DNA of 64,000 bases from positions 66,340,001 to 66,404,000 of the forward strand of contig OX597833.1 of assembly GCA_951406725.2 (NCBI GenBank), written 5' to 3'. The DNA comes from Octopus vulgaris. Its lineage: Eukaryota. Position 1 is the stretch's first letter; each line of letters starts with the position of its first letter. A program made the position numbers and the translations under genes. A model generated the notes under the pieces. That model searched no databases. It saw only the letters and a list, made by a program, of their open reading frames with translations, and had not been told where the DNA came from. Positions 37,900 through 63,651 of the stretch are shown piece after piece.

Positions 37900-38885
37900 A
37901 TGCACACAGTTTACATACTTTTGATATATCTTATAGGTGGAAGAATATTGTGTTTGTCGACCGGTTTCGCTTTCGCTAATCATGACATTGAAATTATTGT
38001 AATTTCGTACTTTCGTAAGATTTTAATCCATGTTGTATGTGGGGAAGTTTGTGAATGAATAAAAAACCAAGTAGAAAAATCTAAGGGGAGATAATAGGTG
38101 ATCGTTATTACTAGGGACAGAGGAAGTAATTGCTCATCTTTTCGGGGAAGAGATAAGTAAATACATATGCAAAAACTCGGTTCCAAGTATTTCCATCAGA
38201 CACTATTGTGTACATCCTTTTTGCTAAATTAAAAGGGATATTTATTTTGATATGTTTCAGGTGGCGTGAGCTAAACAGAAGATATTGCTTCGAGTCTGTT
38301 GGTGTATGATAAATCTCAGTAACAATTTGGTTGTTGTCTGTTTTTATCATAATATCCAAGAAAGGGAGCTGTTCTTTGCTATATTCCATTGTAAATTGGA
38401 TATTAGGGTTTATATTGTAGTATTGATTTAAATGCCAAAGGTTCATTAATGGCATCCTTCCTAATGATAAAGTAGTCATTCAGATATCTTTCCCAGTTTT
38501 CTTTTATATTTAAAAGTGAAATGGAGATCCATAGTTTTGCAGTGACAATTCACAAATGATTAATTCAAAACATTCCATTATTAGGTTTGCAAGAACAAGG
38601 GCTGCTTTCGTTTCCGTCTCAATTTTGATGATAGTAGGTGACATCAAACAGGAAATAATTGTTCAGACGTATAAATTTTAAAGTTTCAAGAATAGAAACA
38701 TGATTAATGCGTTCCTGGAGTACTTCGGGGTACTTTTCCAGCCAGAATTTCATTGCTTCCATTCCATAGTCATGTGGGATGTTGGTGTAAAGATTAATAA
38801 TATCGAAGGAAACCAATAAGGTCGCTTCATTAGTTCGTTTTGGTGATAGGTGTGAGAGCATAGCTAGATGGACTCTAATGAAATT
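37900..38885 (-). mobile_element. decayed PLE RT with degenerate HHR (37955-37987)
   Basis: [47 protein letters not shown]; tgtc ATGATTA gc gaaa gc GAAA ccgg TC gaca. Confidence 0.85.
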
Positions 38886-38902
38886 AGCATATATGTATAT
38901 AC

Positions 38903-49971: not shown

Positions 49972-50195
49972 TTATGTGTATGTGTGTGTGTTTGTGTGTC
50001 TGTGTTCCTCCCCCTAGCATTGCTTGACAACTGATGCTGGTGTGTTTACGTTTCCCGTCACTTAGCGGTTCGGCAAAAGAGACCGATGTAATAAGTACTG
50101 GGCTAACAAAGAATAAGTCCCGGGGTCGAGTTGCTCGATTAAAAGGCGGTGCTCCAGCATGGCCGCAGTCAAATGACTGAAACAAGTAAAAGAGA
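49749..50195 (+). mobile_element. SINE family A, full length
   Basis: Family consensus. Confidence 0.92.
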
Positions 50196-50227
50196 TAAAA
50201 TATATATATATCTACACGCACACACAT

Positions 50228-50258
<31 letters not shown>

Positions 50259-50757
50259 GAGAGAGAGTTAAGTTCGGTTTATCTATCACCATAGTGATAG
50301 ATAAACATGAATCCGTCAACTTCCTAGATGTTAGCTTTAATCTAATTACTAATATTTACAAGCCTTATCGTAAGCCTAACTCTAATCTGAAATATATTAA
50401 TTCAGAAAGTAATCCTCGAAGCTGTGCTAAAAAATTTCTAATTTACAATATTTCTAGAAGAATTTCTGCCTTATCTTCTTGTGAGGAAGTTTTCGATAAG
50501 AATTCTGATTACTATAATATAGCCCTTAAAAAGGCCAGTTACAGTAGGAAAATTGAATACCGAGATTTTTCTAGCAATGTTTATACTGGTAAATCGAAAC
50601 TTACTAGTAATGGATTCGATTTTAAATGTTCCAAATCTGAATGGAAGGGTAAATATAAATCAGGGAATAACAATAATGAGAGTAATCCTTTAATTCCAGT
50701 GACTAATGATCGGAAATATAATTATAATTAAGTGTTAAAAGGTTATAATTCTAAGAT

Positions 50758-50979
50758 CGCCATGTTGATTCGCTAGCTTCTGCACGCATTTTTTTCTCTC
50801 CTTTTTTTTTCTCTCCTTGTTTCTCTCCTTGTTTCTTTTCTGTGTATCTTTCTGTCAAAGAGCGTAGGCTCGAAACGTAAAAGACTTGTTTTATTTATAT
50901 TCTTGAGCGCCATACTAATACAATTGTTTGTTTGTATTCCACCTGCCTTCGTCTTTTGTTTATTTTCATAAAGGTTCCC
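50758..50979 (+). mobile_element. 222-bp insertion with degenerate HHR (50847-50884) and 16-bp TSD
   Basis: gttataattctaagat at 50742-50757 and 50980-50995; tcttt CTGTCAA a gagc gtag gctc GAAA cg TA aaaga. Confidence 0.8.
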
Positions 50980-51361
50980 GTTATAATTCTAAGATGGTCT
51001 ATAAGGTGAATAATTTAGGTAATTCTCATTTAGTTTCGAACAAGAACATTATATGGTATGTTATTCCCTTTGCCAGTCAATTTAAAAATTAACTTTGTTG
51101 GGGTGGTGCATAAATTGTTTTTAAAACACTTCAATAAAAAAAGTAGGTATTATGAGATTTTGAACCTGAGATTCATTAAGGCTGCTTTTTCTGTCTCTCG
51201 GAATTTATCTCAGATTATTTCTTCTATTAATGAAAAGAAATCATCTGGTTTTTATCTTCGAGATAACTTGTTTGGTTTTTAGCGAGATAAATTCCATTCG
51301 TACCAATGTTAATGATTTTCTCAATAGCCAGTTTGGTAGCGAGGGTTTGAATTCTAATATA

Positions 51362-51961
51362 TATTTCTTTATTGCCCACAAGGGGCTAAACATAGAAGGG
51401 ACAAACAAGGACCAGACAAAGGGATTAAGTCGATTATATCGACCCCAGCGCGTAACTGGTACTTATTTAATCGACCCCGAAAGGATGAAAGGCAAAGTCG
51501 CCCTCGGCGGAATTTGAACTCAGAACGTAAAGACAGACGAAATACCTATTTCTTTACTACTCACAAGGGGCTAAACACAGAGAGGACAAACAAAGACAGA
51601 CAAACGGATTAAGTCGATTATATCGACTCCAGCACGTAACTGGTACTTAATTTATCGACCCCGAAAGGGTGAAAGGCAAAGTCGACCTCGACGGAATTTG
51701 AACTCAGAACGTAAAGACAGAGGAAATGCCTATTTCTTTACTACTCACAAGGGGCTAAACACAGAGAGGACAAACAAGGACAGACAAACGGATTAAGTTG
51801 ATTATATCGACCCCAGCGCGTAACTGGTACTTATTTAATCGACCCCGAAAAGATGAAAGGCAAAGTCGACCTCGGTGGAATTTGAACTCAGAACGTAACG
51901 GCTGACGAAATACCGCTAAGTATTTCACCCGGCGTGCTAACGTTTCTGCCAGCTCACCGCC
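51362..51961 (-). mobile_element. SINE family B trimer with 16-bp TSD
   Basis: One head plus three ~185-bp bodies; tttgaattctaatata at 51346-51361 and 51962-51977. Confidence 0.92.
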
Positions 51962-52458
51962 TTTGAATTCTAATATAAGTTGCAATAATAGTGGGAGGAA
52001 TAGATTTTTACTTAATGATAATTCAATTGTCGACGGTTCAAGTAGGGGTGAAAATTCTCTTTGTGATTGTGGAAACAAAGAAAATTGCTTATTTGATAAT
52101 TTTTGTAAACGCAGGGAAGTAGTTTATCAAGTTCAAGTTATTTCTGAAGGTAATGGTTACATTTATATTGGTTCTACAAATTATATTAAGAGAAGGGTTT
52201 CGAATCATTACCATTCATTAAGCAACAGGAATAGGGCTTCTTCTACAAGTCTTAGTAATTTCATTTGGAATCTTGAAGATAATAAAACGTTCTTTATTGA
52301 ATGGAGCATTTTATAGACGGTCTTGGCTTATAGGAATGGTAACAGGTTCTGCTCTCTTTGTTCTGAGGAATTGTTTTCGATTTTATTTTCTAGGAGAAGG
52401 CTGCTGAACTCTAAATCTGAAAGGAGTTTTTTTCTGTGTTCATAGGAATTAATGTGTG

Positions 52459-54156: not shown

Positions 54157-54610
54157 TATTGTTATAAGGGTCTTTTTGTTATAATTTTGTTATATATATA
54201 TATTTTTGATTTCTTATTTCACCTCTCCCCCTCTATGAAACCCGTTTGTTTTGTGTGGATTGTATATTTCTTCATCGTTTCATCATATTGTCTTCAATGG
54301 CTTATGCTCTTGGGACTGGAAAAAGAAATCCCCAACAGAATCATCATCATCATCATCATTATCGTCGTCGTCTTCGTCGTCGTTGTCATCATCATCATCT
54401 TTGTTGTTCTTATTATCTTGCAACGCATATACATACATACATACATATACATACATACATACATACATATATATGTATGTATATGTATATTCAAACATAT
54501 AAGGGATGGCCATAATAGGACATCCGACTCACTAGAAAGAGCAGCTAAACTCCAAACCACTAATAGTTGTAATTCTGAAATGGAAAGAGAAATAAAAACA
54601 TTTACCCTCT

Positions 54611-54696
54611 CCTTTCTGGACTATGCATAGTTTCGGCAAACTTTTGTAAATAAAATTAATTTATTTACCACTGGCGTTGCCTCGTCAGCAGAAAAG
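54611..54696 (-). ncRNA. canonical type-I hammerhead ribozyme
   Basis: cttttctg CTGACGA ggcaa...ttgcc GAAA ctatgcatag TC cagaaagg: intact core, GUC triplet, all three stems pair. Confidence 0.88.
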
Positions 54697-54764
54697 CCAA
54701 GGACTACCATATATTCAGATTTTTCTAGAATTTTTTTTGCTACCCTAAAATTTATTAATATATG

Positions 54765-54827
<63 letters not shown>

Positions 54828-54833
<6 letters not shown>

Positions 54834-55107
54834 TGTTGTTCCCGGGAAGAGTCATTTTCTTTTTGTGCCTTATAATTTAACACACTCACCGGTAAAATTT
54901 CCACTTATATCTTATTTTTAGAAATTTTAAAATTTCCACTTATTTTTTATTTTTAGAAATTTTAAAATTTCCACTTATTCTTATTTTTTAAAAATAAAAA
55001 TAAAAACAAAAATAAAAATAAGAAATAAGCGGAAATTTTACCGGTGAGTGTGTGTTAAATTATAAGGCACAAAACGAAAATAACTCTCCCCAGACACAAC
55101 AGAATAT
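54828..55107. repeat. inverted repeat (~80-bp arms) with internal short tandem repeats
   Basis: ttttgtgccttataatttaacacactcaccggtaaaatttcc versus ggaaattttaccggtgagtgtgtgttaaattataaggcacaaaa. Confidence 0.85.
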
Positions 55108-60755: not shown

Positions 60756-61234
60756 TATACAATTAAAGGCTCCTAAATAAAGATGCCCAGTGCTGGGAAC
60801 ACAAAAAGGGGATGAATTTATCGAGAGTGAAAATCAAAAACATTTACCGATAATTTAAACAACTCGTACCGCGGTTTCTGCTTCTTTCTAGCAAAACACA
60901 GAATATGTTTGCTAAGGCTGGCTTCATCAGCGAGTCGCCTGAATTTAATCGAGGTCCGCAGCGATGTGGGACTATATGTTAAACCCAACTACTAGCAGAT
61001 CTTAACTTTTCAAATCTCTGCGCAGACGCTGCGGACCTCGATTAAATTCAGGCGACTCGCTGATGAAGCCAGCCTTAGCAAACATATTCTGTGTTTTGCT
61101 AGAAAGAAGCAGAAACCGCGGTACGAGTTGTTTAAATTATCGGTAAATGTTTTTGATTTTCACTCTCGATAAATTCATCCCCTTTTTGTGTTCCCAGCAC
61201 TCGGCATCTTTATTTAGGAGCCTTTAATTGTATA
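60756..61234. repeat. near-perfect 208-bp inverted repeat (63-nt spacer) with an HHR in each arm
   Basis: 60756-60963 versus 61027-61234; one mismatch seen. Confidence 0.95.
61055..61128 (+). ncRNA. hammerhead ribozyme motif (mirror copy at 60862-60935, -)
   Basis: actcg CTGATGA a gc...tagcaaa..tttgcta...gc a GAAA ccgcgg TA cgagt. Confidence 0.8.
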
Positions 61235-61348
61235 ACCACATGATTAATATTTTTCTATATGAATAATATTTTCGTCTTATGACTAATTCGTCTTTTGTGC
61301 TGGGCACCTGGTAGTAAATAATATTACTACCCTTCTTGTTTATATTCG

Positions 61349-61423
<75 letters not shown>

Positions 61424-61633
61424 ATGTATATATATATATATATGTATATATGTATATATATATATATATGGGTGTGTGTGATTGTGTATAGAAGAATATA
61501 TTAATAAAAAGAATTCCAACCTTGTCTGATTTTCACGTTTTATTTACAATCTTATAATGATATATTATAAGATAATATATTATAATTGAATAAAATAAAA
61601 TGAAATAGTAGAATGTTAAATATTCATTCTGAT

Positions 61634-61678
61634 TGAACTAGTACTTTCATGCATTGAATTCTGCAATCTTCGGGTTCA
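61634..61678 (-). ncRNA. HHR motif in the PLE 3' region (CUGA->CCGA)
   Basis: tgaac CCGAAGA ttgca..tgcat GAAA gtac TA gttca. Confidence 0.7.
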
Positions 61679-62172
61679 TGTAGTAGTGTTGACAGTCATG
61701 CTTCACAATTTTTGACTGTAGCAAGATGAGTGATTCTGTGCTATAAATACAGCTGGGTAGGCTCCAGAGTGCTAGGTTTTGCAAACTGTATTCTGACCAA
61801 TCAGTGTGTAGTATCACTCAATTACTTAAGCTGATTGGTTGGTTGAGCTGATTGGTTTAGGCATCACGCTTTGTTGGACAGGTCAAGAGTCCTGTATCTT
61901 GACCCTGGCCGAAGCAGCAATTGTTGGGTTATTTTTAGAAATGTTGTAAATATCCTTTGTCAGAGATTTTTATATTTTTATATTTCAATTGTCATCATCA
62001 TCATTGTCAGCACCTTAATTATTGTTGCTAGTGGTGATGGTGGTGGCAATATAACTTTTAACCCTAAATAAGATAATTTTCCTGCTATCTTCGTCTTGAT
62101 CACCTTTAGTATTGTTGTTGTTGTTAGTGGTCATGGTCGTAGCAGTGGAAGTAATACCTCTAAGTATTATTA

Positions 62173-63250
62173 TTATTGCTTATTTAGCTTGGGTTCGAAT
62201 TTATCAATAAAATTCTTTTCTTTGATTTTCCTCTCGATTTCACTTGGGCTGTGTAATTTGTAGAATGGAAATATTATATATATTTTCCGACCACATGTTG
62301 CTAGGTGGTTACTCAAAGGTATCTGACGGACCTCTGGGTCTCTAATCTGTTGCCGGTGTACACGTGAGCGTTCTAATAGTGCGTTTCCCGTCTGACCTAC
62401 ATATATTTCTTCACAATTTGGGCATTTGATGCAGTAAATTAAATTTCTGCTTTTGCAGTTCATATTCGCGTTTGTGAATATTTTCCCGGTTTTTGTGTTT
62501 ATATATTGACCGGTATGTATGAATTGGCATGTGCCACATCGGCTATCATTGCATTTAGATACCGTGAATGTTTGGTCTTTGTTGCTGAGGTCAAATTTTG
62601 CCTTTGTTAGTAATGTTTTCAAGTTTTTAGGCTGTCTTTTACTAAGCACCATAGCTCGATCCTTGATTATGTCTTTTAATTCATTACTTTGGGCAATGAT
62701 TGGTAGGTTTGCTTTGGCAATGTTGAAGATATTCTGGTGACATGGGTTGTGTGTCACTATGAATGGTATGACTTGTTCTTGTTTTCCTCTTCCTTGGGTT
62801 GTCCTAAGTTGTTGTATAGGTATTTTTATAGCCCGCTGTATGCCATTTTCTATAAGTAGAGATGGGTATTTTTGTTTGAGCAAAAATTCTCTTAGTTCTA
62901 TTAGGCGTTTGTTCCTGATATTTGCATCTTCTACAATAGTACAAATTCTTCTGGCTAGGCAGTATGGGATGTTACGTTTTGTATGTGGTGGATGGCACGA
63001 CTTAAAATTTAGGTATTGATGTGTGTCTGTGTGTTTATAGTATATATCTGTGGTGATGGTGGTGTCTTTTTTAATTACCATTATATCCAGGAATGGTAAT
63101 TTGGTACTACTCATCTCCTTTGTAAATTTGAGAGATGGGTGTAGGTTGTTCAGGAGGATATTGAACTCTTCCAGAGTATTTAGAGATTCTGTCCAGATTA
63201 TGAAACAGTCGTCTAGGTATCTCTTCCATGCCTTTTCAATATACTTTCTA
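62173..63250 (-). CDS. PLE reverse transcriptase C-terminal half plus GIY-YIG endonuclease (5'-truncated; element spans ~61498-63250)
   Basis: WKRYLDDCF, LPFLDIMV, YLNFKSCHPPH, CNDSRCGTC, NLIYCIKCPNCEEIYVGQT..R...H, E..FI..F...LN; open frame ~360 aa. The ORF-track start (63366) lies inside the adjacent Helitron. Confidence 0.95.
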
Positions 63251-63266
63251 AATATATATATATACA

Positions 63267-63651
63267 CTAGCAGTATCGCCCGGCGTTGCTCAGGTTTGTA
63301 AGGGAAATAACTATAAAGCATTTTTAGAGAGTTATAGCCAAAAAATAGCAAAAAAATGGAAAACAAATGATGGTAAATTTTTTTTGAGAGTTAAAAAAGG
63401 TAGAGTTGCGTCCCCTAGACGGTCTGTGGTTTGGGTTTCTAATTCTCGACCCCATGTCGAATTTATCGATTTTTTTCAGAACTGGGGGAACTTTTCAAAA
63501 TTTTCGCTGCGTTAGTTTTGAATTATGACATTGGGCTATGTGTGTGTCAAGTTTCATCAGAATCGGTTGAAAGCCGTGGTCAGAGTGAGGGTACGAGAAA
63601 ACAGACACACAGAAACACGCACAGACAAACTGCCGTTTATATAGAGAGAGA
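63267..63651 (-). mobile_element. non-autonomous Helitron (mosaic)
   Basis: Minus strand starts TC(tctctctatataaacggcag) and ends in the hairpin plus CTAG. Confidence 0.82.

Follow-up and report, generated by a model that had tools for sequence, protein, structure and literature searches.

A hammerhead-like motif lies on the minus strand of the 64,000-nucleotide stretch of Octopus vulgaris DNA analysed here (contig OX597833.1, positions 66,340,001 to 66,404,000; the window), and it raises the question of whether this is a stand-alone ribozyme that could cut an overlapping transcript, as an earlier note on this DNA proposed, or a piece of a mobile repeat. A descriptor search of both strands returned one match in the 64 kb, a type I hammerhead at minus-strand positions 54702-54605; among 100 windows randomised in 1-kb blocks with a first-order Markov model none gave an equally strict match, and loose ones came at 0.07 per window. 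The canonical core reported previously was thus borne out: CUGANGA, GAAA and UH are present, together with three helices and an open stem I (Table 1). An Rfam search of 54500-54755 (E<=10) gave no match to a hammerhead model, probably because the long stem II falls outside these models; the Rfam output for the whole window was dominated by microsatellite matches. On its sequence, the motif at 54,611-54,696 is confirmed as a member of the type I hammerheads. Some details needed revision. Stem I does have 8 bp (about 6 bp are kept across subfamilies), with one G-U pair rather than several; the stem III palindrome spans 12 nt and not 10; and stem III, described as long enough to fold as a monomer, would do so only marginally (4 bp and a UGCA loop at +0.4 kcal/mol, against -15.9 kcal/mol as a duplex). 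The AU hairpin on stem II varies in length within the family described below.

Table 1. Positions of the hammerhead, the repeat and neighbouring elements in the window.
Feature	Position	Strand	Basis or remark
Type I hammerhead with its distal stem I (54702-54699 / 54608-54605)	54605..54702	minus	
Stem I, 5' strand	54696-54689	minus	descriptor
Core CUGACGA	54682..54688	minus	position 7 is A/U/C across the family
Stem II, GGCAA 54681-54677 / UUGCC 54639-54635	54635..54681	minus	5 bp
Stem II extension, internal loop and 9-bp AU hairpin	54668-54660 / 54654-54646	minus	
GAA	54634-54632	minus	descriptor
Stem III, 12 nt, self-complementary	54631-54620	minus	
Predicted cleavage site, after C17 of GUC (C17 = 54619)	54618..54619	minus	hammerhead consensus
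Stem I, 3' strand	54618-54611	minus	descriptor
GGC in internal loop of stem I, predicted to form Watson-Crick pairs with 54675-54673	54696..54698	minus	
GCC in internal loop of stem II, predicted to pair with 54698-54696	54673..54675	minus	
Pyrimidine stretch predicted to capture stem I 3' strand (off fold)	54582..54592	minus	
Main arm, 5'-truncated, covering monomer positions 1-228; its 3' end, at site A, meets microsatellite	54490..54717	minus	
Inverted arm, covering monomer positions 288-325; its 3' end, at site B, meets (TA)n	54719..54758	plus	
TA/TATG microsatellite, target on site-A side	54425..54489		
(TA)n microsatellite, target on site-B side	54759..54832		
Two-armed insertion of younger sister family, 444-445 bp monomer	60756-61352		
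Hammerheads of same design in younger sister family	~60930 (-); ~61060 (+)		
5'-truncated copy of very young Neptune-like PLE	61500-63252	minus	
Older broken PLE fragments	50177-52313 (+); 38138-38888 (-)		

The motif turned out not to stand alone: it sits in one of hundreds of dispersed retrozyme copies that bear Penelope-type insertion marks. In the genome (2.8 Gb, 227 contigs), the copy number that the earlier note had suggested checking came to 345 exact matches of a 22-mer over stem III and 249 matches of both core halves together, with 0 for the reversed controls; a search with the unit gave 2,004 candidates, of which the 40 scored were 90-99% identical. The repeat is a non-coding monomer of ~455 bp (454-468 bp, limits set from the flanks) arranged head to tail, its partial tandems reaching 1,203 bp or ~2.6 units, and tandems with at least two complete ribozymes occur at four loci (L074, L058, L044 and L038); in sister families head-to-tail arrays extend to 9-10 units. 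Related families, recognised by stem III and a common downstream motif, gave 5,859 matches versus 13 in the control. Folded as a circle, the monomer's ribozyme strand had z = -4.5 and its opposite strand z = -2.4. The repeat is accordingly a non-coding unit, a few hundred bp in length, carrying a type I hammerhead, with multi-ribozyme tandems in the family and one ribozyme in the window copy; by such sequence criteria we place it as a new family within the animal non-LTR retrozymes. Contigs of four runs, whose RNA origin is our guess, cover 28 of 30 bins of a family locus in a form from which strand, level and circles cannot be read. Octopus hammerheads or retrozymes were absent from the paper titles and abstract openings that we searched, a scope that takes in little of the subscription literature and is outside Repbase, and the supplement of a survey with mussel and other invertebrate ribozymes (PMC7229834) may show the same hammerhead design.

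The window copy keeps 228 of the ~455 bp in its main arm and lacks positions 326-454; its closest other copy is 98.7% identical. Carrying a single ribozyme and half of the unit, this copy is unable to release a unit by itself and is most likely an inert passenger. A younger sister family is represented 6.3 kb away by an insertion with three other copies that are 100% identical over 304 bp; this family forms a ~10-unit array at G000:C5:72143314-72147616, and its hammerhead has an A-A pair at the base of stem II. Further sister families were seen: one forms long opposed arrays of ~492-bp units whose cut sites are GUA (L172:2138-3545; G000:C1:7117178-7121213), and others have a CCGAUGA core (U4C; L280, L308 and L316). 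Another type I hammerhead family with stem III ACAATTGT and a different loop design was present at L059:2849-2885 and L283:1015-1051. At 54835-55105 an AT-rich, MITE-like sequence with long terminal inverted repeats adjoins the right microsatellite.

The '~270-bp unit' of the earlier note is 269 bp of two opposed arms that end in (TA)n at two fixed sites, an anatomy that recurs through the family. We merged 96 distinct insertions from loci chosen by similarity or exact motif, hence a non-random set, in which 3' ends fall at site A (~228) or site B (~325), ~97 nt apart. Single-armed insertions made up 57 of the 96 (42 at A, 12 at B, 3 elsewhere) and head-to-head insertions 38, among which 32 paired A with B, none A with A or B with B, and 6 had one other end; the remaining insertion was complex. 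If ends were independent and equally likely, the chance of 32 mixed pairs in 32 would be near 2e-10. Microsatellite abutted 109 of 125 A or B ends, and since arms end inside it, target-site duplications are unreadable. Two 3' termini, a one-sided tail, an inverted 5'-truncated arm and an AT-rich target are the marks of insertions mobilised by Penelope-like elements (PLEs), for which partial tandems have been described along with a truncated copy in inverse orientation and a one-sided tail of 30-40 bp (Craig et al., PMC8557442). As reported for a purified PLE protein, both strands of AT-rich DNA are cut and reverse transcription starts at two internal RNA sites bounding the tail, the start site showing no strand difference (Frangieh et al., PMC11167929). 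The strict A+B pairing in the octopus suggests one start site per target strand. No clear pile-up of 5' ends was seen at the cut site (2-3 of 28 junctions between positions 75 and 128), and for the long arms a linear multimer template fits as well as a circle. At L079, L083 and L137 both arms start at the same monomer position within a local hairpin, as fold-back junctions, and at L019 and L054 a similar short repeat is inserted near monomer position 152-157.

The repeat itself has no open reading frame for reverse transcriptase plus GIY-YIG endonuclease as an autonomous PLE does, and the earlier statement that no PLE frame adjoins the motif is upheld, the nearest GIY-YIG fragments lying at 51906-52313 (+) and 62176-63390 (-), the latter from the young element discussed below. 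A search for Neptune-like protein at loci L001-L164 (Neptune loci left out), made with one query that distant PLE clades could escape, gave two distinct matches, none upstream of a monomer: a separate element ~330 bp downstream, and a chimera, L002. This chimera runs from monomer position 347 round the whole unit to position 81, where a Neptune-like family's endonuclease end and 3' UTR follow directly, and after them (TA)n; its opposite arm ends at site A. The partner family, presumably Neptune-like from its similarity to the window frame and its cysteine linker, has 2,571 candidates, its best copies being 86-93% identical with a divergence similar to that of the repeat, and it has two 3' ends of its own ~36 nt apart, in (TA)n. 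Outside the chimera the monomer showed no similarity to the 3' end of this second Neptune-like family. A single template switch is the simplest reading of L002. From the insertion marks and this one chimera, a Neptune-type PLE is the likely mobiliser.

Other candidates for the partner were set aside. The very young Neptune-like PLE in the window belongs to a family with a 4,271-bp unit, frames of 454 and 775 aa, tandems and more than 100 copies identical across 350 aa; a relaxed scan found no canonical hammerhead in it, and as a partner it was rejected by sequence for lack of similarity to the monomer. Locus L026 was dropped as a second chimera, its flank having only 8 matches and appearing to be a duplicated flank. 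By eye, the 3' UTR of the second Neptune-like family (L168-L197) contains what may be a minimal hammerhead, its core being U3-A8 and its stem I 7 bp long.

Sequence variation among the copies supports selection on the hammerhead fold in the family. In 56 aligned copies, 96.1% of cells were paired and two-sided changes numbered 22 versus 4.8 in shuffles, a control that overstates covariation since the copies are related; 20 of the 22 fall at two stem I pairs. In an older subfamily GAGCU/AGCUU has replaced stem II and an 8-nt palindrome has replaced stem III around an unchanged core, and in 34 copies chosen irrespective of the ribozyme both core halves were kept in 20, the free core position 7 being A in 13, U in 11 and C in 10. 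Stem III differs in sequence between families but is in most of them a palindrome, exact or with G-U pairs, that extends through the loop. A double hammerhead, unlike the monomer hairpin, needs a stem III loop that is self-complementary (PMC4209133), and such loops across families point to cleavage as a dimer. A second, minimal hammerhead at monomer ~360-430 (CUGCYGA ... GAAA) was rejected: it carries the low-activity A6C change, its stems fail in the older subfamily, and it is at most a relic.

The internal loops of stems I and II are predicted to be joined by base pairing. Motifs were collected with a pattern free of the triplets and 28 rows with a core were counted by eye, four rows being dropped where a junction replaced the 5' half and three cores re-picked by eye. 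Three Watson-Crick pairs were present in 22 of the 24 motifs (19 GGC/GCC and 3 GGU/ACC) and two were unpaired. GGU/ACC occurs in three families with different stems; at L296 it is found in 3/3 copies, and the apparent sister L308 has GGC/GCC. At a fourth position many families have U-A, A-U or G-U and others U-U; in the window repeat's own family the contact is conserved with no real covariation (1 cell). Though independent changes are few (three families), the relatives suggest that a GGC/GCC contact between loop I and loop II may hold the fold. Base-paired contacts of stems I and II are known in ~40% of hammerheads, which makes the one here a variant of a known device. A separate count of GGC-core-GCC (7,786 versus 376) was discarded because its pattern imposes the triplets; ~15 of 40 fetched places had the right architecture.

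How far this design would serve the window copy was estimated from folding energies, which ignore tertiary contacts and cotranscriptional folding. The active fold lies 7.8-8.8 kcal/mol above the ensemble in contexts of 228-501 nt and 11 kcal/mol above it in the circular monomer, the downstream pyrimidine stretch capturing the 3' strand of stem I; the gap is 3.0 kcal/mol in the 131-nt template proposed in the earlier note, which omits most of this competing strand. In its own context the window copy is therefore predicted to misfold by ~8 kcal/mol. An antisense block of the core from upstream had been considered and is unneeded, the predicted competitor lying downstream. That this motif is the best candidate here for an active ribozyme is doubtful, given the predicted off fold and the younger family 6.3 kb away.

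Taken together, we consider it probable that the locus is a copy of a ~455-base non-LTR retrozyme inserted into a TA microsatellite by a Neptune-type PLE enzyme. A tandem source copy would be transcribed, and adjacent hammerheads would cut out a unit-length RNA, probably while pairing with each other through the self-complementary stem III and stabilised by the 3-4 bp contact of loops I and II; this RNA would probably be ligated into a circle. A Penelope-type reverse transcriptase and endonuclease would then nick both (TA)n strands, one being primed at RNA site A and the other at site B, to give two opposed arms, which at this locus would have stopped after 228 and ~40 nt. A broader form of this proposal, in which a large cephalopod-type retrozyme superfamily with the loop-braced hammerhead is inserted into (TA)n by a Neptune-type dimer that primes both target strands at two fixed sites of a single circular RNA, is offered tentatively, as slightly too uncertain for us to favour.

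The tail, the inverted arms and the (TA)n targets are PLE traits, and they could mark the repeat as the pLTR of an autonomous Penelope-like element, with the window copy as its 5'-truncated remnant; vertebrate retrozymes do resemble pLTRs (10.64898/2026.07.22.740005). We regard this as improbable, since the one query used at L001-L164 met no Neptune-like protein upstream of a monomer and what stands upstream of a unit is another unit. Spread by an ordinary LINE or by duplication of DNA is less probable still. Fragments that we take to be LINE-like do lie in the window, and L1-type twin priming also yields inversions; against this, the repeat carries neither its own poly(A) nor its own simple-repeat tail, its two internal ends are fixed and strictly paired as A+B, its units are circularly permuted head to tail, and the chimera joins it to an element with a GIY-YIG domain.

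Just as unlikely is the view that the window copy works, perhaps co-opted, as a ribozyme that cuts an overlapping host transcript, which the earlier note had envisaged. Its core and stems are intact, the 131-nt piece is close in energy to the active fold, and folding during transcription could precede synthesis of the competing strand. Hundreds of similar copies and the repeat-rich surroundings speak against it, as do the predicted off fold in context and the weak monomeric stem III; when the PLE frame of the window and the 150 longest of its 237 filtered frames were searched, no host domain exceeded the cut-off, and no overlapping host gene was found, although a position within a host intron is possible.

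The probable retrozyme resembles systems already described. Metazoan non-LTR retrozymes from coral, mussel and axolotl (Cervera and de la Pena 2020, PMC7229834) likewise consist of non-coding units that measure a few hundred bp (350-390 bp in mussel) with one type I hammerhead each, low GC, tandem arrangement and a highly paired predicted circle, and some mussel circles share the predicted blocking of the ribozyme. Compared with that account, the octopus family consists mostly of dispersed copies of 0.5-1.5 units; it has a long stem II that carries an internal loop and an AU hairpin, and a Watson-Crick loop contact is predicted. Retrozymes have been argued to be non-autonomous PLE derivatives (Li, Clavereau, Pollet 2026, 10.64898/2026.07.22.740005), the same conclusion on the partner as ours, and solo monomers occur there too. 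That study, as presented, builds on co-occurrence and pLTR similarity in 31 vertebrates, three insects and a coral, with no molluscs, and one of nine predicted retrozymes cleaved in vitro; the octopus case is built on insertion anatomy and the chimera, and no pLTR sequence similarity was found. With the Neptune and Poseidon PAc PLEs (PMC11167929, PMC8557442, PMC4209133) the repeat shares AT-rich targets, 5' truncation, partial tandems, an inverted arm and a one-sided tail between two start sites of reverse transcription. It differs from these endonuclease-bearing elements in having no open reading frame, a tail of ~97 nt instead of 30-40, and a full hammerhead where theirs is described as the minimal form. 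Among pseudoknot-stabilised hammerheads, the type II loop-tail form is detailed by Perreault et al. 2011 (PMC3088659); the predicted octopus contact is of 3-4 bp between two internal loops, in the ribozyme of an animal retrozyme.

As a truncated repeat copy, the window locus itself is of little import, and the family weighs more. Its value lies in the A+B rule, in the chimera and in the loop contact that covaries, and the pairing of loops I and II would explain why standard models miss thousands of these predicted ribozymes. Mobilisation of animal retrozymes by PLEs has so far been proposed rather than demonstrated; here the pairing of A and B arms together with the chimera points to a named partner family and two exact priming sites. 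If the superfamily reading is true, the chimera names the partner, and retrozyme mobilisation would become directly testable in vitro.
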